This document shows positions 1 to 11,020 of a stretch of DNA of 64,000 nucleotides, piece after piece. The stretch's first letter is position 1. Each line of letters starts with the position of its first letter. This DNA comes from an uncultured Acidobacteriota bacterium. GTDB lineage: Bacteria; Acidobacteriota; Vicinamibacteria; Vicinamibacterales; UBA8438. The position numbers and the translations under genes were made by a program. The DNA lies in NCBI GenBank assembly GCA_913043225.1, contig CAJWLU010000002.1:192001-256000 (forward strand), read 5' to 3'. A model generated the notes under the pieces. That model saw only the letters and a list, made by a program, of their open reading frames with translations. It searched no databases and was not told the origin of the DNA.

Positions 1-1193
1 CGATGGGGTACGTCGAGCACGCCATGCGCAAGCGGATACAGCGAGGTGAGGATCGACGGGGCCGACGCTTTCGTCCAAGTGGCTTGCGCCAGGGCGTCGT
101 CGAACCGGGCGCCGCCGGCGGCCAGTCTCGAGAGGGCGGGCGTGGTCTTGCGCTCGTAGCCATAGAGGTCCATGTGGTCGGGCCGGAGGGTGTCGGCCAT
201 GACCACGATGACCCCTTGGGGCGTCTCCTGCACCGGCGCGCGCCGGCGGATGACCGGGGCGCCCCAGAGCCCGATCACGGCCGGTTCCGGCGCTTCCACC
301 GAAAGGGCCAGCGTTATCTGACGACCCGCCACGGCCGTGAGGTCGACGGCGGCCGGCTCCCACCGGTCGGGGGTGGTGAGGGTTTGGCGGAACAGCTCAA
401 TCCGGTCGGTGTCCGACTCGGCCACCACGCGGAATGTAGTCGGCGTCGGAGTCATCGTCCCCAGCGCGAGGTCGAGCCAGGACCCGTCCGGGATGGTGAC
501 CGGTACCCGGAAGGTCTCGGGTGACTTGGCGACGACTGACTCGCGAAAAACGTTGGACTGACCTCGCCAGGCTACGCCGCTTGGGGTCTCGGCGAGATAC
601 TCGCGGTCGAACACCAGCCGGACCGAGGCGATCTCGAACTCGGCGCCGGCGACATCGCTCGGGCGGATGAATACCCTGTGGATAGCGGACGACGGTCTGG
701 CGTCCTTGGCTCGGATCTCGTAGGTCCGCAGCTCGTCGCCAGGGATCAAAGGACTCGAGAGTGCCCATGCCTCGTCGTCACGGACGCCTTCCAGGTCGAA
801 GGTCCCTCGGCTGCGGAACTCGACCTCCAGAGTGGTGCCCTCTGAGACTTGGATCTCGATCTCGACCGTGTGAAGTCGGTCAGTGCGGTGGCCATCGTCC
901 GGCCATTCCGCATAGACCATGCCCGTAGGGTCCGCACTGCGGCCACGGAGGCGACCTTGCCGCACCACGACGTCCTCGAGCCCGCCGCCTTCCTGCCAAG
1001 CCGTGGCCTCGTCCTCCACTGCGAATCGCCAGAGTGCTCGTGGCGGGGAGGATGCAGCCGGGGTGTCGGAGATAGTCGCCGGCCCGCCGCCGACCAGATC
1101 TACCAGGTGAATCGCGGTCGGAAGTCGGTCCGGCTGACCGCCGCAGGCGGCGCCGAAGAGGATGATGACGATGGCCGCACTGACGCGGGGCAC
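1..1193 (-). CDS. Sulfatase-like (alkaline phosphatase superfamily) lipoprotein, 3' end outside window
   Basis: Not in ORF track (no stop in window). Hand translation from GTG at 1193: signal/lipobox IVIILFGAAC, then GVIVVMADTLRPDHMDLYGYERKTTPAL...QATWTKASAPSILTSLYPLAHGV, a sulfatase-family N-terminal core. Confidence 0.85.
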   Translation of the reverse strand, partial: MPRVSAAIVIILFGAACGGQPDRLPTAIHLVDLVGGGPATISDTPAASSPPRALWRFAVEDEATAWQEGGGLEDVVVRQGRLRGRSADPTGMVYAEWPDDGHRTDRLHTVEIEIQVSEGTTLEVEFRSRGTFDLEGVRDDEAWALSSPLIPGDELRTYEIRAKDARPSSAIHRVFIRPSDVAGAEFEIASVRLVFDREYLAETPSGVAWRGQSNVFRESVVAKSPETFRVPVTIPDGSWLDLALGTMTPTPTTFRVVAESDTDRIELFRQTLTTPDRWEPAAVDLTAVAGRQITLALSVEAPEPAVIGLWGAPVIRRRAPVQETPQGVIVVMADTLRPDHMDLYGYERKTTPALSRLAAGGARFDDALAQATWTKASAPSILTSLYPLAHGVLDVPH

Positions 1194-1194
1194 C

Positions 1195-2025
1195 TCACAC
1201 CTCGACCCCGAGCACGCCCTTAAAGGCGAACCCGAAGAACATCGAAAACACGAAAAAGCCGATCAGCCAGTTGACGCCGAACCCGAGCAGGCTCATCTCG
1301 AGTGGGGGGTACGCGACCTCGATTGTCTCGATCGGGTGACCCGCGTCGATCGGCGGTTCTCCGGGGTAGAGCAGCGCATCCAGAGGGTTGGTGGTCCGGA
1401 GCTGACCGATGCTGCGCCAACCGCCGCCCCCGCTGAGCCCCTTCTCGAGCGCCTCGTCGCCGATGTGCACCAGGAGGACGTGGTCGCCGGCAGTGTCTAC
1501 CCGCACCCGCCATGCCACCTCTGGGTTGGTACGGACTCGCACCGGCGGTGTTTCCACGGTCACACCGTGAGGTGCTTCGAGGCTCAGCGGCTGGTCGAGC
1601 AGAGACGCATCGCGGACGATTGCCTTCAGCACGACCGATTCGCCCGGAGAGAGGGGGCGGACATCGAACCGCAGCGCCAGCTGGGTCATGATCAGCACCA
1701 CCGGCACCAACATCACCAGGAGCGGCACTAGCGCCAGCCGCATGAAGCCGAAGGTGTCGGTAAAGATCCGACGCTGCAGGCCGAGCACGACACCGATGTC
1801 GTGTTGGAACAGCCGGACGCCGATCAGGTTGCCTCGAATCCGGTCCCGCACCGCCTTGATCTGCTCCTGATCCGAGGTTTTGCCGAAGAGCCAGACGAGG
1901 AAGATACCAGCGCCGGCCGAGATCGCGGTCAAAGCCCAGACCGGGGCGAGGCTCCGAAATGGCCAGGTGATGACCTCGAAGATCGGCGTCATTACGACGT
2001 GCAGGACGTGGACAAGCGTAGACAT
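1195..2025 (-). CDS. Hypothetical integral membrane protein (N-terminal TM plus amphipathic segment, possibly DUF106/EMC3-like)
   Basis: 276 aa; about three hydrophobic segments with a beta-rich soluble middle; abuts both neighbours. Confidence 0.75.
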   Translation of the reverse strand: MSTLVHVLHVVMTPIFEVITWPFRSLAPVWALTAISAGAGIFLVWLFGKTSDQEQIKAVRDRIRGNLIGVRLFQHDIGVVLGLQRRIFTDTFGFMRLALVPLLVMLVPVVLIMTQLALRFDVRPLSPGESVVLKAIVRDASLLDQPLSLEAPHGVTVETPPVRVRTNPEVAWRVRVDTAGDHVLLVHIGDEALEKGLSGGGGWRSIGQLRTTNPLDALLYPGEPPIDAGHPIETIEVAYPPLEMSLLGFGVNWLIGFFVFSMFFGFAFKGVLGVEV

Positions 2026-2217
2026 CTACGAGATGTAGCCGAGTCCCTTCAGGCGCTTCTTGATCTCCTCTTCGGAATCGGCGCCCTCGAGCTGGACGAT
2101 CTCCTTCTCCAGCGCGTGGTTGACGAACTCTTCGACGGTCGAGTACCCAGCGATTTCAGCATAGCGGGTCGCTTTCTCGAGTAGTGCCTTGTCGATCTTG
2201 ACCTTGGAACCGAACAC
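2026..2217 (-). CDS. Small ribbon-helix-helix-like protein with C-terminal LxxLGY motif
   Basis: 63 aa, AAGGAGG RBS upstream; KVKIDKALLEKATRYAEIAGYSTVEEFVNHALEKE resembles CopG/RHH; ends EEIKKRLKGLGYIS. Confidence 0.8.
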   Translation of the reverse strand: MFGSKVKIDKALLEKATRYAEIAGYSTVEEFVNHALEKEIVQLEGADSEEEIKKRLKGLGYIS

Positions 2218-2243
2218 GTTGTCGTTCCTCCTTTGTTCCTGGC

Positions 2244-4241
2244 CTACCGATCCGAGATCACGTCCTGTCCGATCATCTCGGGCAGCGGAGCGACCCCGAA
2301 TTCGTTGAGCACGCTGACGGTCAAGTCCGCCAGTCCCGGGTTCTCCACGCTGACCTGGCGGTTGGTCAGGAGTATCCCAGGTACCAGTCGGTAGTCATTT
2401 GTGTGGTCACCGCTCCATGGATCGTCGTTGTCGACGACGATCTCTTCCGAGAACTCTCCGAGCGGGCTTTCCCACGAATAGCGGTAGCCGCGGTTGTAGC
2501 CGACGAGCAAATCCGGGCTCAGTTCGAGGTGAGGGCCAGTGAACTCCTCGCGCGTCTTGAGGACCAGACCGATCGGCGCGTTGCCGTTTCGCTCGTCCAC
2601 CAATGCCAGCAGGTCGCGCTCGAGCTCGTCGAGGAGCCGGTTGTACTCTTCACCCGGTCGGACGATGCCTCCCTGCTCGCGGCCCTCCAGGTTCACGAAC
2701 ACCCCGCCCATGCCAAAGGCGTAGGCTTGGGTCCGGGACCAATCGACGTTGGTGAACATAGGGAGATCGGTGACCCGCGTTGGGTCACGCAGGGTGATAT
2801 AGCCTCGTTCGAGCAGGTAGGTGTTCAGGTTGACGCCCCAGTAGAACGGCGAGAACCCGTGGTCGGACATCACCATCAACGTGGTGTCGTCGTCTACCGC
2901 GTCGAGTACCCGGCCCAGCGCCTCGTCCATTTCCTCGTAGAGCTGCCGGATGCCCTGCTCGAGCAGCTCGTCCGGCTCGTGAAGTGGATGCTCCGGATCC
3001 GCGTAGTGGTAGAGCATGTGCGAGCCCTGGTCGACGCTGGAGAAGTAAAAGAAGAGCAGGCCGTCGTCGAAGTCCTCGAGGAAATGATCGAGTGCCCGCC
3101 GCCGTTCCTGATAGACGAACTGCGCCTGTTCCCAGAACTCTCGGCCGCTGAAGATACCTTCGGAGAATGCCTTGGTCTCCTCGGGGAGCTCCTGCGTGTA
3201 GAAGGGTCCGAGGACGTCATGCAGATCCCCCGACCAGTCCTCGGGGCTCGACAGTGGCATCGCCGGGTTGTCCGGGTGGATCTGCAGTGGCGACACATAC
3301 AGCCGGAAGTCGGGTCGTACCTTCTGGAGATAGAAGCGGCCCATTGCACTCACGTTGACCAGATACGGGAGCGCCTCGAATTCCACGTCCACCCAGTCGC
3401 TCCACTCGCCCTCGTTGAGCACGAGCTCGGTCTCCTGAACGACGATCTTGGCCGCCGGAGCTTCCGGGTCGATGTGCACCTCGAAGTCGATCGTTAGCTC
3501 TGGGTTCTCATACTCCACCTCTCCCGCGCCGAACACGGTGGTGGTGGTCGGCTCTCGGCGGAGCGCATTTGGGGGGCCGTAGAGCTGGGCCTCGACTCTG
3601 CCGTTGACCACCTCCACCAGCTCGAGCCGGCCGGTCATCGCCTCCTGATTTTCTGGAGGGTAGTCAGTAAAGAAGGTGTAGATGCCGTGGAGGCCGAGGA
3701 TGTCTGGGGTGCCCATGCCGGCGAACGACCGCCCGCCGATCACCGGAGGAAAGTTCACCGGCATCCGGAAAATCGTCGTCTCGATGCCGGCCTGGTCGAG
3801 TAGCTCCCAGAAGGCTTGACCGCGGCGATAGAGTTCGACGTCGCCGCCGGAGAGCGGCACCACCCAGGAGCCGATGTTCAAACTGCGGCCTTCCGGGCCG
3901 ATTGCGTAAAACGGTTCGACGACCTCCATCGTGGCCGGGTCCCGGAGCAGGAAGTCGAAGACGCCATGACCACCTGGGTCGAGGCCGGTGATGAACGTCG
4001 ACCAGGCCACCGGACTGAGGGGGGGCATGGTGGTCTCGAGCGGACTGAGGCTGCCCTCGTCTGCCAGACGGGAAAAGTTGGGGAGCCGGCCCTCGCCCAT
4101 GAACTGCTCAAGCAGGCCATGGTCCATGCCGTCGATGCCGATCACGATGACTCTCTTGCCCGAGCCGCCGACGCGACAAGCGGCGGCCACGGCCGCCATC
4201 GCGACGAGTCCGAGCGCCGTCAGCAGCCGAAGGCGGGTCAT
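2244..4241 (-). CDS. Alkaline phosphatase superfamily / type I phosphodiesterase-like protein, predicted lipoprotein
   Basis: Lipobox-like AAAAC; motifs GIDGMD, PPLSPVAWSTFITG, DQGSH, SDHGF, WSGDH. Confidence 0.85.
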   Translation of the reverse strand: MTRLRLLTALGLVAMAAVAAACRVGGSGKRVIVIGIDGMDHGLLEQFMGEGRLPNFSRLADEGSLSPLETTMPPLSPVAWSTFITGLDPGGHGVFDFLLRDPATMEVVEPFYAIGPEGRSLNIGSWVVPLSGGDVELYRRGQAFWELLDQAGIETTIFRMPVNFPPVIGGRSFAGMGTPDILGLHGIYTFFTDYPPENQEAMTGRLELVEVVNGRVEAQLYGPPNALRREPTTTTVFGAGEVEYENPELTIDFEVHIDPEAPAAKIVVQETELVLNEGEWSDWVDVEFEALPYLVNVSAMGRFYLQKVRPDFRLYVSPLQIHPDNPAMPLSSPEDWSGDLHDVLGPFYTQELPEETKAFSEGIFSGREFWEQAQFVYQERRRALDHFLEDFDDGLLFFYFSSVDQGSHMLYHYADPEHPLHEPDELLEQGIRQLYEEMDEALGRVLDAVDDDTTLMVMSDHGFSPFYWGVNLNTYLLERGYITLRDPTRVTDLPMFTNVDWSRTQAYAFGMGGVFVNLEGREQGGIVRPGEEYNRLLDELERDLLALVDERNGNAPIGLVLKTREEFTGPHLELSPDLLVGYNRGYRYSWESPLGEFSEEIVVDNDDPWSGDHTNDYRLVPGILLTNRQVSVENPGLADLTVSVLNEFGVAPLPEMIGQDVISDR

Positions 4242-6403
4242 AGTGCCGCCGCCCGTGCCGCCCCGCCCGACATGGCGTCTCGGGGTGGAGAATCGGCAGC
4301 TGCCGGCATCAACGACTGGCCGTCGCAGTAGCCGGGCACCTTCACCCCGAAGAGATCGAGGACGGTGGGGCCGATGTCCATGATGCTCGGCGTGTCGCTA
4401 TTGATCCTTCTGTTCGAGAAGAGCATGCCGGGGACGTCGGGCGGGTTGAAGTTGTGGTCGCCGCTCCAGTAGCGGGTGTTGTCCTCGATGACCTCGGTGC
4501 CGACGCCGCCGGTGACCGACGTCCATCCCACCCGGTGCCCCGGGCGGAAGCCGACGATCAGATCCGGCGCCTCCGGCACATACGGGCCTGAGTAGACCTC
4601 GGTAGCGTCGTACACTTCCCGGACCGGCTGGACCTGCTCGACGTGGTCGACGAGCTCGAGCAGACCCTCGCGGATTGCCTGCTTTAGCGCGGGCACTTCC
4701 TCAGCTGTCACGGTGCCCTGGGCCTCGCGCCCGGCGAGGTTGAGGTAGATGCCGCCGAATCCCACCGCGTAGGCCTGGGTGCGCGACCAGTCGACGTCGC
4801 CGAACATGTCCGCACCGGTGGGGATGTCCCCTTTTAGCGCGAGGAATCCGCGTTGATACAGCCAGGTGTTCAGGTTGACGCCCCGACGGAACGGTTTGAA
4901 GCCGTGATCGGACATCACGAAGAGTGCGGTGTCGTCACCGGCGGCCTTCATCGTCTTGCCCACGAGTCGGTCCATCTCGATGTAGAGCTTCCGGATGGCG
5001 TCCTTGTGCTTCCCGTTCCGGCCGCGATTGGCGGGGTGGGTTTCGTCGAGGTGCCGGAAGAACATGTGCTGCAGGCGGTCGGTGATATCGAAGACGCAGA
5101 CCACGGCTCCCTGGCTGGTCTTGTCCAGCGCGTCGAAGAACATCCGTTCCCGCTCCTCGTGCACCAGATAGGTCTGCTCCAGGAACGCATCCTCATCGAC
5201 CACTTCTTCGTTCAGAGCCGACGTGTCTTCGGCCAGTCCGAGTGTGGCGTAGCGACCCTGGGTCTTCGAGAGGTATACCGCATAAGTGAACGGGTGTGAG
5301 ATCGGCAGCGCCGGCTGATCCGGGTCGATGTTAATCGGCGTCATGTACAGCTTCAGGTGCGGATCGGTCTCGAGTAGGTAGAAGCGCACGATGCCGGTCA
5401 CCGACATGCCGAGTCCTGGCTTAAAGGACAGCGTGATCCAGGGCGTGTGCTGGCGGCGAGGTAACGGGTGAGTTTCGTCACCGAGCAGCAGCGTGGCTGC
5501 GCCGTCCTCTGCGGCCTGGACCTCGAACTTGAGCAGCATCTCGCCGCCTGCCTCTAGGAGGCTGTTCTCGGGACCCGTGATGACGCTCTGGGCGCGGCCA
5601 CCGGTCCACGTGACTGGCACCCGCACGCCACTGGTCATCGAGAGCCGTTCGTCCGGGTCGCTGCTGTAGTAGTGGTAGGTGCCCTGGCTCCCGTTCAGGT
5701 CGGGCACGCTCATCGCCGATAGCAACGTTCCGTTGAATTTCTCGGCGGGGAAGGTGATGGGGACGCGGAGGATGGTGCTGACGATGCCGTGGTCGCCCAA
5801 CGTTTTCCAGAACGGTTGACTCTTGCGTCCCTGCTCGATGAGCGGCTTGCCGAGCGGAATCCGGAACGGTCCGAGCGGCAGCGAGCGCCGGGGCGGCTCG
5901 ACGCGGGCCGAGCAAAGTTCCGGCAGATGCGATTTTCGATTCGGGACGAGAAAATCGAAGATCCGGTGCTTGCCGGGGTTGCATCCGGTCTGGAATGAGG
6001 TCCACGCGACCGGGGACTCGGCGAGCAGGGTCGTACCGAGCCGGTTGAAGCTTCCGGCATCGCGGAGCTTCGCGAAGTTCGGCAGTACCCCTTCGTCCAT
6101 CAGGGCTTCGGTCAGCTCCGGATCCTGACCGTCGAGGCCAAGAACGATGACCCGTTTGACCCGGCTGGCGGCTAGCGCCCGGCTCCCGCGGATTTTCTGG
6201 ATGGCCAGGCGGACGGGCCAGGTCACCAGGGTCACCACTGCCAGCATCATGGTGACCAGCAGGATGAAGAGGGACGAGACGAAGGCGAAGCCGGCGCCCG
6301 GGCCGACGTAGGCGTGGACCGCGGCGGGAGCGATTAGCTCTCCGGCTGTCACCGCCAGCAGTGCGGCGGCAGGTAGGGACCCGCGAAGACTCTTGGGCAT
6401 CAA
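4238..6403 (-). CDS. Alkaline phosphatase superfamily / type I phosphodiesterase-like protein, membrane-anchored
   Basis: Signal-like N-terminus ending VHA-YVGPGAG then a TM helix; motifs GLDGQD, AESPVAWTSFQTG, DRLQH, SDHGF, WSGDH. Confidence 0.85.
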   Translation of the reverse strand: MMPKSLRGSLPAAALLAVTAGELIAPAAVHAYVGPGAGFAFVSSLFILLVTMMLAVVTLVTWPVRLAIQKIRGSRALAASRVKRVIVLGLDGQDPELTEALMDEGVLPNFAKLRDAGSFNRLGTTLLAESPVAWTSFQTGCNPGKHRIFDFLVPNRKSHLPELCSARVEPPRRSLPLGPFRIPLGKPLIEQGRKSQPFWKTLGDHGIVSTILRVPITFPAEKFNGTLLSAMSVPDLNGSQGTYHYYSSDPDERLSMTSGVRVPVTWTGGRAQSVITGPENSLLEAGGEMLLKFEVQAAEDGAATLLLGDETHPLPRRQHTPWITLSFKPGLGMSVTGIVRFYLLETDPHLKLYMTPINIDPDQPALPISHPFTYAVYLSKTQGRYATLGLAEDTSALNEEVVDEDAFLEQTYLVHEERERMFFDALDKTSQGAVVCVFDITDRLQHMFFRHLDETHPANRGRNGKHKDAIRKLYIEMDRLVGKTMKAAGDDTALFVMSDHGFKPFRRGVNLNTWLYQRGFLALKGDIPTGADMFGDVDWSRTQAYAVGFGGIYLNLAGREAQGTVTAEEVPALKQAIREGLLELVDHVEQVQPVREVYDATEVYSGPYVPEAPDLIVGFRPGHRVGWTSVTGGVGTEVIEDNTRYWSGDHNFNPPDVPGMLFSNRRINSDTPSIMDIGPTVLDLFGVKVPGYCDGQSLMPAAADSPPRDAMSGGAARAAAL

Positions 6404-7044
6404 GTGGCTCCTGATCCAGCGTCTTGTCCGGCACGATTCCGGTAGAGCTGGCTGTCCACGACGCCGCTCATCTTCTCGACGTCTAGGCTGCCGCCGAGGA
6501 ACGCGTTTACCCGTTCTGCCACCGCCGCAGGCTGGGTCACCGCCGCCCGGTGCTCGACATAGAGCACCTCGCAGTTCTTCCGCGCCGCCAGCTGCCGCTC
6601 GACCTTGCTCAGATGGGCCGCGAACACACGCGCCATCTCCGCATCGGCGGCGTCGCCGCCAGATGCGCCCCGACGATCTAGCATCTTTTGCTGGGAGGCG
6701 AGGACCTCCTGCAAACTCCGTCGAACGAAGACGATCTTGTAATGGTGGGTGGCGGGCAGATGCTGGAGCAGGAAGGAGATGATCTTCACGACTTTGCCGT
6801 GCGCGTCGTCGAGCCAGGCGGTGTCGCCGTTCTTGTCGAGGTCCTTGACCGCTTCGAGCTCGTGATATCCCCTCGGGTTGTCGTCGTCCGCCTGGCGGAC
6901 ACCGTCGACGACCTCCTCCAGGCCCCCGGCCGAGATCATGCTCATGAGCATGGAGGTGCCCGAGCGAGGCAGACCGGAGACCACAACCACCGATTTGTCT
7001 ACGCCAGGCGGGTCACCGGCGAAGAGCCGGCGCAAGAACTCCAT
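6400..7044 (-). CDS. PAPS-dependent sulfotransferase family protein
   Basis: 5'-PSB motif SGLPRSGTS and 3'-PB-like motif FVRRSLQEVLASQ; start set at ATG 7044. Confidence 0.85.
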   Translation of the reverse strand: MEFLRRLFAGDPPGVDKSVVVVSGLPRSGTSMLMSMISAGGLEEVVDGVRQADDDNPRGYHELEAVKDLDKNGDTAWLDDAHGKVVKIISFLLQHLPATHHYKIVFVRRSLQEVLASQQKMLDRRGASGGDAADAEMARVFAAHLSKVERQLAARKNCEVLYVEHRAAVTQPAAVAERVNAFLGGSLDVEKMSGVVDSQLYRNRAGQDAGSGAT

Positions 7045-7138
7045 CGTGACAGCTATTTCAATCGATGACCGGGGACCCGTCAAGCGGGTGCTCAGGCCGT
7101 TTGCGCCGCCGGGAGGGGGGCACTACACTGCGCACGCG

Positions 7139-7918
7139 ATGATGCAGATCGAGGCGGTGAACGAGGTCGCGCTGCGAGCCGGCGAAGTCGTCATGCGCCA
7201 CTACACGGCGCGCGATACCTGGGTGCGGGCCAAGGAGGACGGGTCGCCGGTGACCGGGGTGGACCTAGCGGCGGAGGAGATCATCTACGCCGGCCTGCGA
7301 GAGCTGGATCCGTCGATCCCCTACGTGTCCGAGGAGCGGGAGCTGCCGGACTACGAGACGCGGCGGGCGTGGGCGCGCTACTGGCTGGTCGATCCGCTCG
7401 ATGGCACCAAGGAGTTCATCAACCGGACCGACGAGTTCACCGTGAACATCGCGTTGATCGAGGCTGGACAGCCGGTGCTTGGGGTCGTGATGGCGCCAGC
7501 CTCTAACCTGCTCTACTACGCGACCAACGGCCAGGGGGCCTGGAGACGGAAGGGTGAGGGGGGCCCCGAGCGGCTGAGGTCCAGGCTCGCGGATCCGGCC
7601 GAGCCGCTCCGGATTGTGGAGAGCCGTTCTCATCCGAGCCCGGCGCTCGAGGCGTTTCTCGAGCCGTTCACGATCAGCGAACGGGTTAAAAGCGGCAGCT
7701 CGCTCAAGTTCTGTGTGGTTGCGGACGGACGGGCTGACATCTATCCACGTCTCGGGCCGACGATGGAGTGGGATGTCGCCGCCGGCGACTGCGTCTACCG
7801 CAACTCCGGAGACCCCGAGCCTCATCCGGGCACGCTGCGGTATAACAAGCCATCACTCAAGAACCCCAGCTTCGTTATCGGGCTGTCGCCTGGCAGCTAC
7901 GAGCTGCCTGAGGGCTGA
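7139..7918 (+). CDS. cysQ: 3'(2'),5'-bisphosphate nucleotidase
   Basis: KEDGSPVT, WLVDPLDGTKEF, GSSLKFC, PTMEWDVAAG motifs. Confidence 0.92.
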   Translation: MMQIEAVNEVALRAGEVVMRHYTARDTWVRAKEDGSPVTGVDLAAEEIIYAGLRELDPSIPYVSEERELPDYETRRAWARYWLVDPLDGTKEFINRTDEFTVNIALIEAGQPVLGVVMAPASNLLYYATNGQGAWRRKGEGGPERLRSRLADPAEPLRIVESRSHPSPALEAFLEPFTISERVKSGSSLKFCVVADGRADIYPRLGPTMEWDVAAGDCVYRNSGDPEPHPGTLRYNKPSLKNPSFVIGLSPGSYELPEG

Positions 7919-7953
7919 TCGAGGCCCCTCGCACTTGGGCGCGTCGCCATCCG

Positions 7954-8065
7954 TGATAAATTGAAGCGTTTGTCTACCCACCCAAGATGAGTGTGAGGAC
8001 AGTCGTCTCCGTTCGCACATTCCCCATACGCCGTTGCCGGCCTGGTCCGAAAGGGCCGGGCGGCA
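7954..8065 (+). promoter_or_regulatory. Putative promoter and structured 5' leader of sat
   Basis: TGATAAATT (extended -10-like) at 7954-7962; hairpin 7991-8018; GAAA-tetraloop hairpin 8035-8065 just before the GAGGAG RBS. Confidence 0.35.
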
Positions 8066-8088
8066 GGATAGTCAGAGGAGCCGGTACG

Positions 8089-9819
8089 TTGTCAGACCAT
8101 CTCATTGCCCCGCATGGCGGGACGCTTGTCGATCTGTTCGTCGATTCGGAACGCTCTGCCGCGCTGAAGGCCGAGTCACGCGATTGGGCGTCGCACGACG
8201 TGACCGCACGTCAGCTGTGCGACCTGGAACTGTTGCTTGGCGGTGGCTTCTCGCCGCTGACGGGGTTCATGACCTCGGCTGACCATAGCGCCGTGTGCGC
8301 GGACATGCGGTTGGCCGACGGCACGCTCTGGCCGATGCCGATCACGCTCGATATCTCGGAGGCAATGGCGGAGAAGACTGAGGTCGGCGGCACGCTGGCC
8401 CTCCGTGACCCCGAGGGCGTCATGCTCGCGGTGCTACATGTGGAGGATCTCTGGCGTCCCGATCGGGAGGGGGAGGCTCAGGCGGTGTTCGGCACCGCCA
8501 ACCCCGAGCATCCCGGTGTGGCTCAGTTGCTCGAACGGACCCAGCCGGTCTACGTCGGCGGACGGATCGAAGGGCTGCAAGCCGTGTCGCACTATGACTA
8601 CAAGCGCCTGCGTCACACCCCGGCTGAGCTGCGGGAGGCGTTTGCCAGCCTGGGATGGGCCAAGGTGGTCGCCTTCCAGACCCGCAACCCGATGCACCGC
8701 GCACACCAGGAGTTGACTCTGCGCGCGGCGAAGGAGATCGAGGCCAACCTCCTGATTCACCCGGTGGTCGGAATGACCAAGCCGGGCGACGTAGATCACT
8801 ACACGCGCGTCCGTTGCTACCAGGCGCTCCTGCCGCGGTATCCTGAGGACACCGCGATGCTGTCGCTGCTGCCGCTGGCGATGCGGATGGGCGGACCTCG
8901 CGAAGCGGTGTGGCACGCGATCATCAGGAAGAACCACGGTTGTACCCACCTGATCGTCGGGCGCGACCACGCCGGACCAGGCAGCGACTCTGCCGGTAAT
9001 CCGTTCTACGGACCGTACGACGCCCAGGAACTGCTCAGCCAGCACGAAGAAGAGCTGGGCGTAGCCATGGTGCCTTTCAAGCTGATGGTCTATGTCGAGG
9101 ACGACGATGCCTACTCACCGATCGACGAGGTGCCCGAGGGGAAGCGCTCACTGAATCTCTCTGGAACCGAGCTTCGTGACCGGCTGGCGAAGGGAAAGGA
9201 CATTCCGTCGTGGTTCACCTTCCCGGCGGTGGCCGACGAGCTCAAGAAGAGCCACCCTCCTCGGCATCAACAGGGGTTCACGCTGCTCTTTACCGGTCTT
9301 TCCGGCTCCGGCAAATCCACCATCGCCAACGTGTTGCTGGTCAAGCTCCTCGAGATGGGTGGTCGCCCGGTGACGTTGCTCGACGGCGATCTGGTGCGTA
9401 AGAACCTGTCGTCCGAACTGGGCTTCTCCCGCGAGCACCGCGACATCAACATCCGTCGAATCGGTTATGTCGCCTCCGAAATCACCAAGCATGGAGGGAT
9501 CGCTGTGTGCGCGCCCATTGCGCCATACGACAGTGTTCGCAAGCAGGTACGGGCGATGATCGAGCCGATCGGCGGATTCATGGTGGTTCATATCGCCACC
9601 CCGCTCGAGGAATGCGAGAAGCGAGATCGGAAGGGGCTCTACGCCAAGGCGCGGGCCGGCATCATCAAGGAGTTCACCGGCATTTCGGATCCGTACGAGG
9701 AGCCGGAGGATGCGGAGATCGTCATCGACACGACGGAGTTCACGGCCGAAGAGGCGGCGCAGCAGATCGTGCTGCACCTCGAGAAAGAGGGCTTCGTCGC
9801 CGGTCGGCTGACCAAGTAG
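8089..9819 (+). CDS. sat: Bifunctional sulfate adenylyltransferase / adenylyl-sulfate kinase (PAPS synthase)
   Basis: LIAPHGG, AFQTRNPMHRAH, GRDHAG; C-terminal APS kinase FTGLSGSGKST and KGLYAKAR; TTG start at 8089 after GAGGAG. Confidence 0.95.
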   Translation: MSDHLIAPHGGTLVDLFVDSERSAALKAESRDWASHDVTARQLCDLELLLGGGFSPLTGFMTSADHSAVCADMRLADGTLWPMPITLDISEAMAEKTEVGGTLALRDPEGVMLAVLHVEDLWRPDREGEAQAVFGTANPEHPGVAQLLERTQPVYVGGRIEGLQAVSHYDYKRLRHTPAELREAFASLGWAKVVAFQTRNPMHRAHQELTLRAAKEIEANLLIHPVVGMTKPGDVDHYTRVRCYQALLPRYPEDTAMLSLLPLAMRMGGPREAVWHAIIRKNHGCTHLIVGRDHAGPGSDSAGNPFYGPYDAQELLSQHEEELGVAMVPFKLMVYVEDDDAYSPIDEVPEGKRSLNLSGTELRDRLAKGKDIPSWFTFPAVADELKKSHPPRHQQGFTLLFTGLSGSGKSTIANVLLVKLLEMGGRPVTLLDGDLVRKNLSSELGFSREHRDINIRRIGYVASEITKHGGIAVCAPIAPYDSVRKQVRAMIEPIGGFMVVHIATPLEECEKRDRKGLYAKARAGIIKEFTGISDPYEEPEDAEIVIDTTEFTAEEAAQQIVLHLEKEGFVAGRLTK

Positions 9820-9838: not shown

Positions 9839-10435
9839 ATGGACGGGAAGGGACGATTCACCCGGGCCGTCGAGCGGTTCGACGCGGCGAACGCGGACGA
9901 TCCCAACCACGAGACGGTCGATGGGGCAGACCAGCCCAAAGAGCTGGTCTACGCTCGTCGGATGACCGCTACGTTGGCGAGGTTCGCCCCGAACGCGTCA
10001 GAAATTGTCCGGCTGGCGGCCCGCAGCCAGCATATCCGTCGTTGGTCTGTGCCCCGTACCGACTACCCTAATGGGCGGGACGGCTACCGCCGATGGCGGA
10101 CACATCTTTACGGCGTGCACGCCGACACGGCCGCTACTATTCTGCGAGACGTAGGCTACGACGAGCCGACTGTGAGCCGCGTCGCCTCGCTTCTGCGCAA
10201 AGAGCGCCTCAAGGTCGACCCCGAGGTACAGCTGCTCGAAGACGTGGCATGCCTGGTGTTCCTGGAGCACTATCTATCTGACTTTGTGCCGAAACACGAC
10301 GAACAGAAGCTGACGGGGGTCTTGCAGAAGACCTGGCGCAAGATGTCGGCAGCCGGCCACGAGGCCGCGCTCGCGCTGGATTTTCCGTCTGAACTTCGAG
10401 CATTTCTCGCGCGCGCTGTCGGTCCTGTGCGTTGA
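9839..10435 (+). CDS. DUF4202 family protein
   Basis: FDAANADDP, LAARSQHIRRW, QLLEDVACLVFL, KTWRKMS patterns. Confidence 0.8.
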   Translation: MDGKGRFTRAVERFDAANADDPNHETVDGADQPKELVYARRMTATLARFAPNASEIVRLAARSQHIRRWSVPRTDYPNGRDGYRRWRTHLYGVHADTAATILRDVGYDEPTVSRVASLLRKERLKVDPEVQLLEDVACLVFLEHYLSDFVPKHDEQKLTGVLQKTWRKMSAAGHEAALALDFPSELRAFLARAVGPVR

Positions 10436-10594
10436 GCGGACCGGCAGCCTTTCCTCCGGCGACTCAATCTCACACAGTGCTACCGATAGGAGGGCCCGCG
10501 TAGCCACGTCCAGTGTCACGCCGCCACTCCATCGCAAGGCCATGTCTGACAGCTCGGATCATATGACCCGGGGTCGTGCGATCATCGAGTGAGG

Positions 10595-11020
10595 ATGGCG
10601 CTTGTCAAGCTGTCGGAGACGGTCGCGGTCGAGGAGCATGAGCTCGAGGAACGCTTCGTTCGCGCGTCGGGTCCCGGTGGCCAGAATGTGAACAAGGTGG
10701 CGACGGCTGTCGAATTGCGCTTCGACGTCGCCGGATCGTCGCTCGACCCAGGCGTCAAGGTGCGGCTCGAAGAGGCGGCCGGCACCCGGATGACTTCCGA
10801 CGGGGTGCTGGTGATCGACAGCCGTGAGCATCGGACCCAGGCGCAGAATCGCATCGCCGCCCGACGTCGTCTGGCCCGCTTTCTCGAAGAGGCCGCCCGT
10901 CCCCCGAAGACGCGCCGGCCGACTCGGCCGAGCCGAGCCTCTCGCGAGCAACGGCTCAACGACAAGCGGCGTCGCGCGCAGGTCAAGACCGGTCGCGGCC
11001 GGCCCGCACGGGACGACTGA
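10595..11020 (+). CDS. arfB: Alternative ribosome rescue peptidyl-tRNA hydrolase
   Basis: RASGPGGQNVNKV (GGQ) and basic C-terminal tail RRPTRPSRAS. Confidence 0.93.
   Translation: MALVKLSETVAVEEHELEERFVRASGPGGQNVNKVATAVELRFDVAGSSLDPGVKVRLEEAAGTRMTSDGVLVIDSREHRTQAQNRIAARRRLARFLEEAARPPKTRRPTRPSRASREQRLNDKRRRAQVKTGRGRPARDD

Follow-up and report, generated by a model that had tools for sequence, protein, structure and literature searches.

The first step of caprazamycin sulfation is reportedly catalyzed by Cpz8, an enzyme that uses 3'-phosphoadenosine 5'-phosphosulfate (PAPS) to make an aryl sulfate. The second step, which is PAPS-independent and has an aryl sulfate as donor, is described for Cpz4 and the arylsulfotransferases (ASSTs) in a 2026 review, according to which ASSTs take aryl sulfates as donors and tyrosine peptides as substrates, their natural substrates being unidentified (PMC13426309). 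Tyrosine shuttles for acyl groups are described for DltX and PatA, which occur either free or fused (PMC12148441). In Halobacterium, deletion of Agl30 or Agl31 abolishes glycan sulfation, and expression in Haloferax adds sulfation (PMC11980604). We describe here a gene cassette from a stretch of 64,000 nucleotides (the window) of an uncultured Acidobacteriota bacterium (assembly GCA_913043225.1, contig CAJWLU010000002.1, positions 192,001 to 256,000; G000:C2:192001-256000 in our numbering). Its nearest relatives with a name belong to the Vicinamibacterales. The cassette encodes two alkaline phosphatase-superfamily (AlkP) proteins, AlkP721 and AlkP665, a ribbon-helix-helix (RHH)-like microprotein and a membrane protein of the Oxa1 type, next to genes for a sulfotransferase, for CysQ and Sat-CysC, and for a sulfatase-like lipoprotein.

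The cassette is real, widespread and undescribed. Each of its protein families is known, and we found no known system that combines them or that exports sulfate in this manner; a literature search, with most subscription journals and supplements outside its coverage, returned no published description of the cassette, of the LxxLGY tail discussed below, of the microprotein or of a sulfate shuttle. We lean, with reserve, toward a reading in which the cassette draws on PAPS to relay sulfate across the inner membrane and a DltX-like tyrosine would move it outward.

Results

A tethered tyrosine in AlkP721 and in arylsulfotransferase operons

AlkP721 begins with a signal peptide and its A-x-A site, followed by Tyr-x-Gly-Pro-Gly-Ala-Gly, one membrane helix and a basic stretch, such that Tyr32 is the first residue past the A-x-A site. 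This order of elements places the catalytic domain of AlkP721 inside and the tyrosine at the outer end of the helix; AlkP665 carries an export signal, and the two AlkP proteins are predicted to lie on opposite faces of the membrane, signal cleavage and topology having been read by eye. The Y, G, P, G, A and G of the motif are invariant in 65 of 65 diverse members, and the motif was present in 35 of 36 and in 68 of 68 of the AlkP721 N-termini examined. An Atlas search with the tyrosine segment returned only fragments of the family itself (score 0.75).

A profile of this segment detects free proteins of 66-87 amino acids that consist of a signal peptide, Tyr-x-GPGAG and a membrane helix only; short matches numbered 4729 among 8000 candidates, fragments included. 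With one free microprotein as query we observed 7 matches on alphaproteobacterial plasmids, and in 5 of these the operon of the microprotein also encodes a PF13469-type sulfotransferase and a membrane-anchored ASST (PF14269 was confirmed in both of the ASSTs scanned). On a sixth plasmid (Rhodobacteraceae, L219:5643-11912) it is located between a sulfotransferase/sat-cysC block and a cluster with acyl carrier protein and MBOAT genes, and the neighbours of the seventh match are uninformative. The operon of Paroceanicella profunda has the order ASST, tyrosine microprotein, membrane-protein homolog, sulfotransferase. Its homolog of the window membrane protein is full-length (hhalign 98.7%, E 4e-16, 219 columns); a single-sequence tblastn search with the window protein had given no match on plasmids, and a profile later found this one.

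An inner PAPS enzyme, a tethered tyrosine and an outer aryl-sulfate enzyme are together what a sulfate shuttle would be expected to look like, and the plasmid operons are our strongest clue. In the window the tyrosine arm is fused, and AlkP665 stands where the plasmid operons have the ASST. No ASST (PF14269/PF05935) is present in the cassette, and a profile built from 5 ASSTs found none in the genome, which is 96% complete.

In the other four ASST operons the gene between microprotein and sulfotransferase encodes a small membrane domain. This was also considered as a minimal Oxa1 protein, an identity that hhalign (2%) does not support. Separately, we observed a variant tyrosine microprotein, with YLDPG[TS]GS, that is followed by a conserved gene of unknown function and a membrane sulfatase-like gene (L226:7769-8137, L227:7677-7955); possibly, it is a sister shuttle for another group.

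The two AlkP proteins

AlkP721 and AlkP665 are NPP-type AlkP proteins (PF01663) by fold, by two-metal ligands and by a Ser/Thr nucleophile, both having a full metal site and Ser as the nucleophile. Invariant residues of AlkP721 are D91, S130, D442, H446, D499, H500 and H650; the nucleophilic Ser of AlkP665 is present in 75 of 80 orthologs, and a Cys shortly before its first strand in 82 of 124, most of the others having a hydrophobic leader. The AlkP721 model resembles the Xanthomonas NPP (Xac NPP, 7n1s, E 5e-10), ENPP1, PhnA and PafA, and we take its metal ligands to be equivalent to those of Xac NPP; a single-sequence PDB search with AlkP665 gave no match.

Complex prediction for the catalytic part of AlkP721 with the tail of the RHH microprotein gave a score of 0.50, against 0.00 for the best control, with contact agreement of at least 86% between runs and a partner pLDDT of at least 52. 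The score mark was reached by 116 of 157 solved pairs and by 2 of 215 mismatched pairs, of which only 18 of the 157 solved pairs, and both mismatches, lay at or below 0.60. The modelled interaction of AlkP721 with the RHH tail has weak support.

Conservation of the cassette and co-occurrence with sulfur genes

We compared three sets of loci. Set 1 has 42 GTDB loci found with the membrane protein as query. Set 2 has 40, picked for family diversity from 88 strong matches among 301 Acidobacteriota genomes after two weak membrane-gene matches (E about 5e-4) had been set aside. Set 3 has the 80 best of 599 metagenome loci found with AlkP721, many of them on short contigs. The four-gene core of AlkP721, AlkP665, RHH microprotein and membrane protein was found in 41/42, 38/40 and 52/80 loci, respectively, and the microprotein by itself in 42/42 and 40/40 of sets 1 and 2. 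A sulfotransferase gene is nearby in 36/42, 23/40 and 21/80 loci (80/162 in all).

The membrane gene occurs in 88 of the 301 Acidobacteriota genomes, in 8 of 61 genomes from the phylum to which a Sumerlaeota genome belongs, and in 7 of 35 from a third phylum. All 88 Acidobacteriota carriers have a long AlkP, and 85 have two or more. The APS (adenosine 5'-phosphosulfate) kinase gene cysC was detected in 82 of these 88, in 58 of 102 genomes with a long AlkP only and in 44 of 111 with neither, and four of the six carriers that appeared to lack it are less than 82% complete. On the other hand, of 80 cassette genomes searched for cysH only 17 gave a match; this search omitted the genome of the window and seven of the least complete carriers. 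It would thus seem that the majority of carriers produce PAPS and have no sink of the cysH type, although the cysC and cysH counts are indicative and not a test, since the genomes are related and incomplete.

A short soluble AlkP is encoded nearby in 1, 10 and 18 loci of sets 1, 2 and 3, often just upstream of AlkP721, which is the position of the sulfotransferase in the window, and in none of the three sets did the sulfotransferase and the short AlkP share a locus. Of 7 genomes whose locus has neither of the two genes, three showed no sulfotransferase anywhere. A strict genome-wide exclusion of one by the other is only partly supported, as 4 of 11 genomes with the short AlkP have a sulfotransferase match outside the locus.

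Single exported long AlkP genes (L114-L133) lie in many loci upstream of open reading frames (ORFs) that by eye resemble EnvC/M23 and S41 peptidases, and these loci are tied to genomes rich in the LGY tail and not to cysC. With the query used, we found no support (0/50) for a hidden free tyrosine microprotein in genomes that have one exported AlkP only.

The membrane protein

Oxa1-family proteins are insertases. The family profile of the window membrane protein finds archaeal MJ0480 (5c8j) with E 2e-7; PF01956 is matched by 10 of 129 relatives, the window protein alone falling below it; the best structural match is 7tut_8, a chain of a multipass translocon (Z 10.4, rmsd 3.0, 134 aligned residues; helical matches need care); and Atlas gives TM scores of 0.65-0.68 to archaeal EMC3_TMCO1 clusters. 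Foldseek with this protein returned nothing at E <= 0.001, and only Ig-like matches above that value. Because of these four lines of similarity we assign the protein to the Oxa1 superfamily (EMC3/TMCO1/DUF106), with a predicted three-helix transmembrane core and cytoplasmic hairpin. The canonical YidC of the same genome is encoded separately, on C43.

The RHH microprotein, the lipoprotein and the LxxLGY tail

Residues L56, G58, L59, G60 and Y61 of the microprotein tail are invariant in 33 of 33 members, 11 of which match RHH_1 weakly (best E 0.002). The tail is more conserved than the predicted DNA-binding strand of the same protein, and the gene is located in the middle of the operon. The lipoprotein has a lipobox-like GAAC (by eye) and, outside the window, an LxxLGY tail of its own. 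In comparison with 4upl and 4upi, it has Thr at the sulfatase Cys/formylglycine position and Ala in place of a conserved Arg. Among 62 sulfatase-like neighbours of the cassette, 29 have this Thr and 33 could not be parsed, with no Cys or Ser among those that were. The lipoprotein is ruled out as a classical (type I) formylglycine sulfatase, as the C/S-x-P-x-R signature is absent. Its best score with LtaS/EptA-type family models was 41.9 bits against a cut-off of 500, and it has only the Thr nucleophile in common with them.

LxxLGY tails are present on 5 ORFs of this genome, including the lipoprotein and the RHH microprotein; the remaining three are listed in Table 1. In related loci the same tail ends APS kinases, CysD-like proteins, a second RHH protein and other AlkP proteins, the first three of these being found in sat-cysC-short AlkP clusters that adjoin the cassette (L029, L077, L085, L093, L139, L156, L174, L196). 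As a DNA pattern, LxxLGY was detected in 133 of 190 genomes with a long AlkP and in 18 of 111 without one, and a reversed-pattern control was near zero.

Layout of the locus

Features of the locus are collected in Table 1. Gene order, coupling and divergent gap are as stated in the preliminary description, the minus-strand genes overlapping or being separated by 0, 1 or 26 bp. Its gene identities also stand: CysQ scored 271 bits with TIGR01331 (cut-off 228.8), Sat-CysC (PRK05537) is a full-length equivalog match that scored 924 bits with NF004040 (cut-off 669), the sulfotransferase scored 36.1 bits with PF13469 (Sulfotransfer_3; cut-off 27), both large proteins match PF01663, and the 63-amino acid ORF, membrane protein and sulfatase-like lipoprotein were all confirmed in the operon. 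By reading of its sequence, the sulfotransferase contains a G-x-P-R-S-G-T loop, which we take to be a motif of PAPS-dependent sulfotransferases. The protein belongs to the PAPS-dependent type, and sulfate transfer is predicted from the family; a single-sequence PDB search gave no meaningful solved relative. Since a genome search with PF13469 overlooked this very protein, we have not used that model for claims of absence. To the 3' side of sat-cysC (window 9839-11020) are genes for a DUF4202 protein and a short, ArfB-like RF-1-domain protein, with no visible tie to the cassette.

Table 1. Features of the cassette, its surroundings and other LxxLGY ORFs of the genome (positions are those of the window unless prefixed)
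Feature	Position	Strand	Remarks
Lipoprotein gene, sulfatase-like, 5' part	1..1193	-	whole gene 785 aa, G000:C2:190836-193193
Oxa1/EMC3/TMCO1/DUF106-like membrane protein with inserted beta-rich (Ig-like) domain	1195..2025	-	
RHH-like microprotein, 63 aa, LxGLGY end	2026..2217	-	Tyr61 codon 2035-2037
AlkP665, NPP-type AlkP, Ser nucleophile, lipoprotein/export signal, predicted periplasmic	2244..4241	-	PF01663
AlkP721, NPP-type AlkP, signal peptide, Tyr segment and one membrane helix, catalytic domain predicted cytoplasmic	4238..6403	-	PF01663
Proposed shuttle segment of AlkP721, Tyr32-x-GPGAG then membrane helix	6215..6310	-	
PAPS-dependent-type sulfotransferase, 214 aa, GLPRSGTS loop	6400..7044	-	PF13469 above cut-off
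Divergent intergenic region, 94 bp	7045..7138	.	
cysQ, PAP 3'-phosphatase	7139..7918	+	TIGR01331 above cut-off
sat-cysC fusion, PAPS synthesis	8089..9819	+	NF004040; ORF open from 7987, likely start TTG 8089
Cys leader ORF and terminator/antiterminator before cysH	L001:16610-16771 = G000:C2:190610-190771	-	just left of window
LxxLGY ORF, 854-aa lipoprotein paralog	G000:C3:79724-82288		
LxxLGY ORF, 524-aa sulfatase-like	C13:3181-4755		among glycosyltransferase-like ORFs (by eye)
LxxLGY ORF, 54 aa	C25:18885-19049		maybe a remnant

The adjoining assimilation operon

Outside the window and on the same strand, cysH begins 269 bp past the stop codon of the lipoprotein gene (NF002537, 255 bits, cut-off 154; TIGR00434, 234 bits, cut-off 165), and is followed by a gene for the N-terminal part of CysG, by cobA and by a 778-amino acid reductase of the NirA/Sir type, whose best model is NF007126 (E 3e-77, below the cut-off of that model). 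The preliminary description had pointed out that no APS/PAPS or sulfite reductase is encoded in the window, which is literally true and yet misleading, as both cysH and the NirA/Sir-type reductase adjoin its edge. The argument built on that absence, that PAPS here serves sulfation and not assimilation, was wrong for this genome, which has an assimilatory operon next door; nor is the locus a sulfation-only island. The only Sat-CysC found in the genome is that of the window, and it is common to the assimilation operon and the cassette.

Assimilation is thus present here, and under separate control. The cysH operon carries its own promoter-like sequence, and its leader has five Cys codons in succession and a stretch that pairs with the 5' arm of a terminator. 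In RNA folding the antiterminator formed if the RNA was free from just past the Cys codons; if only the RNA past the leader stop codon was free, the terminator formed. We found no Rfam match in L001, the locus that includes this leader. A Cys-rich leader was observed upstream of cysH in 6 of 20 related loci, within a narrow search window; two further pattern matches look like chance. The promoter-like sequence and the Cys attenuator argue that the cysH operon is regulated apart from the cassette. To the 3' side of the assimilation operon are genes resembling those for GlnB/PII, a sigma-54 activator and glutamate synthase, and a LysR gene (L001:195-9505; all but LysR by eye).

Discussion

A proposed relay and its alternatives

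By established family functions, Sat-CysC makes PAPS and CysQ removes 3'-phosphoadenosine 5'-phosphate (PAP). In the relay toward which we lean, Sat-CysC would supply PAPS, in common with assimilation in this genome, and CysQ would clear PAP; the sulfotransferase, or in some lineages the short soluble AlkP at the same gene position, would load the sulfate, which might pass by way of the tail tyrosine of the RHH microprotein and Ser130 of AlkP721 before it reached Tyr32, on the Gly-rich arm at the outer end of the membrane helix. The Oxa1-like protein would provide a hydrophilic groove in which the tyrosine arm meets the cytoplasmic side. The Ser of periplasmic AlkP665 would then take the sulfate, the role of the ASST in the sister operons, and would hand it to the tail Tyr and the Thr of the sulfatase-like lipoproteins, which would sulfate an acceptor in the envelope, most likely a glycan. 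We guess at a glycan because the tailed gene on C13 lies among glycosyltransferase-like ORFs and because one of the plasmid operons adjoins annotated glycosyltransferases.

Two extensions of this scheme are more doubtful than the relay itself. The LxxLGY tails may tentatively be viewed as sulfo-tyrosine carriers on each face of the membrane, the RHH microprotein serving inside and the lipoprotein tail outside. More broadly, and with as little assurance, bacteria might possess a general sulfo-tyrosine bucket chain, in which LxxLGY tails would tag carriers on either face, a YxGPG arm would move sulfate through an Oxa1-family conduit (a former insertase) and enzymes of the AlkP fold would be the sulfotransferases; the arm would then be the missing natural donor of many membrane-anchored ASSTs, and many exported 'sulfatases' of Acidobacteriota would add sulfate.

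The preliminary description had assembled the right gene set, although it did so without the likely carrier tyrosine, the Oxa1-like identity and the LxxLGY tail. Its proposal that the AlkP proteins pass sulfate to an extracytoplasmic acceptor gains from the co-occurrence with cysC, from the predicted placement on opposite faces, from the Thr of the lipoprotein and from the presence of the tyrosine segment in sulfotransferase/ASST operons; what did not survive is its argument from absence.

Several observations weigh against the relay. The AlkP fold matches enzymes of phosphoryl chemistry (NPP, PhnA, PafA), and in PAPS it is the phosphorus that an NPP would normally attack. Only the groove analogy would explain how a tyrosine on the outer side could meet a cytoplasmic donor, and in the other 4 ASST operons the small membrane protein has no homology to the Oxa1-like protein that hhalign detects (2%). 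As cysH and sir adjoin the cassette here and occur in 20/42 and 19/42 close loci, nearby PAPS genes do not necessarily serve the cassette. In 102 of the 301 genomes a long AlkP occurs and the membrane gene does not, and only 58 of these have cysC; in 20 inspected loci of this kind a single exported AlkP stands among envelope and housekeeping genes and not among sulfur genes, and in 0 of 50 such genomes did the query used find the tyrosine microprotein. The LxxLGY pattern occurs in 66 of these 102 genomes, as against 18 of the 111 without a long AlkP, such that tail and outer AlkP can occur without the proposed supply line. A sulfatase-like gene is nearby in only 17/42, 15/40 and 30/80 loci of sets 1 to 3, which makes the lipoprotein an optional neighbour. 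Also, replacement of the sulfotransferase by the short AlkP is only partly genome-wide, since of 18 genomes without the sulfotransferase at the locus 10 yielded no ortholog of it, and since a sulfotransferase match elsewhere persists in 4 of 11 short-AlkP genomes.

Alternatively, the same two-sided machine and tyrosine shuttle might carry a phosphoryl or nucleotidyl group (for example AMP or phospho-AMP from APS or PAPS, or a phosphodiester head group), the sulfur genes supplying the nucleotide or being merely co-located. We regard this as unlikely, if the best of the alternatives. It agrees with the NPP fold and its full two-metal site, with the chemistry of LtaS and EptA, with weak EptA/MCR-type matches of the lipoprotein that are far below cut-offs, with the lack of cysC in 44 of the 102 genomes that have a long AlkP and not the membrane gene, and with the 2 loci in which YLDPG-type tyrosine microproteins precede membrane sulfatase-like genes, no sulfur gene having been detected nearby. 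However, the closest free homologs of the tyrosine segment lie between a sulfotransferase and an ASST, both of which are sulfuryl enzymes, and the frequencies of the sulfotransferase in the loci and of cysC in the carriers given above also speak for sulfate as the cargo.

It is less likely still that there is no relay at all, and that a lipid or glycan precursor is sulfated in the cytoplasm, with the AlkP proteins editing or recycling on each face, the Oxa1-like protein acting as the insertase of AlkP721 and the RHH protein as the operon regulator. Oxa1-family proteins are indeed insertases and the RHH fold suggests DNA binding, and Agl31 is described as a soluble protein that acts on lipid-linked glycan (PMC11980604). 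Yet such a scheme leaves unexplained the invariant N-terminal tyrosine, which also occurs in a free microprotein together with an ASST and the same membrane protein, and it fits poorly with an RHH gene in mid-operon whose tail is better conserved than its predicted DNA-binding strand. Finally, the direction might be inward, periplasmic sulfate esters being stripped and the tyrosine carrying sulfate to a reversed sulfotransferase that loads PAP and so feeds assimilation. The cysH-cysG-sir operon that adjoins here and in about half of close loci and the sulfatase-like fold of the lipoprotein would suit this direction, which we nevertheless consider improbable: cysH is not seen in 63 of 80 cassette genomes, PAP would be required and CysQ would destroy it, the lipoprotein is without the Cys/Ser-x-P-x-R motif, and the promoter-like sequence and Cys attenuator of the cysH operon indicate separate regulation.

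Comparison with known systems

If the outward sulfate relay is real, it would explain how envelope molecules could be sulfated on the far side of the membrane, in a compartment without PAPS synthesis, and would add to the Oxa1 family a role besides insertion; Thr-type 'sulfatase' annotations in the abundant soil and marine Acidobacteriota may then point the wrong way. The tyrosine arm would also be a concrete donor candidate for ASSTs, whose natural substrates are unidentified according to PMC13426309. The three- to four-gene ASST version is carried on plasmids of cultured Rhodobacterales, which leaves the shuttle open to testing.

The nearest parallels are DltB/DltX/DltD and PatA/PatB (PMC12148441). 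Like these, AlkP721 has an invariant tyrosine at a membrane helix that may be free or fused, on an arm that is short and, here by prediction, extracytoplasmic, the proposed donor being cytoplasmic and the next enzyme an outer Ser enzyme; by analogy with them we propose its carrier role. In the Dlt and Pat systems the motif is C-terminal, FxYxxF, whereas here the tyrosine is N-terminal, after a signal peptide, in YxGPGAG; and here an Oxa1-like partner takes the place of MBOAT, an AlkP or an ASST that of SGNH as the outer enzyme, and sulfate is the cargo proposed. A family scan found no MBOAT or SGNH domain in the cassette.

With Cpz8/Cpz4 and the periplasmic ASSTs the relay would share the logic that a PAPS enzyme makes an aryl sulfate and a second, PAPS-independent enzyme uses it. 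Their shuttle is a diffusible small molecule, in contrast to the membrane-tethered tyrosine proposed here, and the locus has no ASST. Halobacterium Agl30 and Agl31 are AlkP-superfamily sulfatase-like proteins required for glycan sulfation, and resemble the lipoprotein by description; they are archaeal, and the accessible text names no sulfate donor and describes no membrane relay for them (PMC11980604). The Oxa1 superfamily (archaeal Ylp1/MJ0480, TMCO1, EMC3, Get1) has in common with the window protein an N-terminal amphipathic helix, TM1, a cytoplasmic helical hairpin, TM2 and TM3, but the window protein is bacterial, has a beta-rich insert between TM2 and TM3, is tied to one operon and coexists with YidC. 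Lastly, AlkP721 and AlkP665 share the fold and two-metal site of the NPP branch (Xac NPP, ENPP1, PhnA, PafA), and differ from it in having Ser and not Thr as nucleophile, identities of 8-12%, large insertions and a predicted pairing on opposite faces of the membrane.

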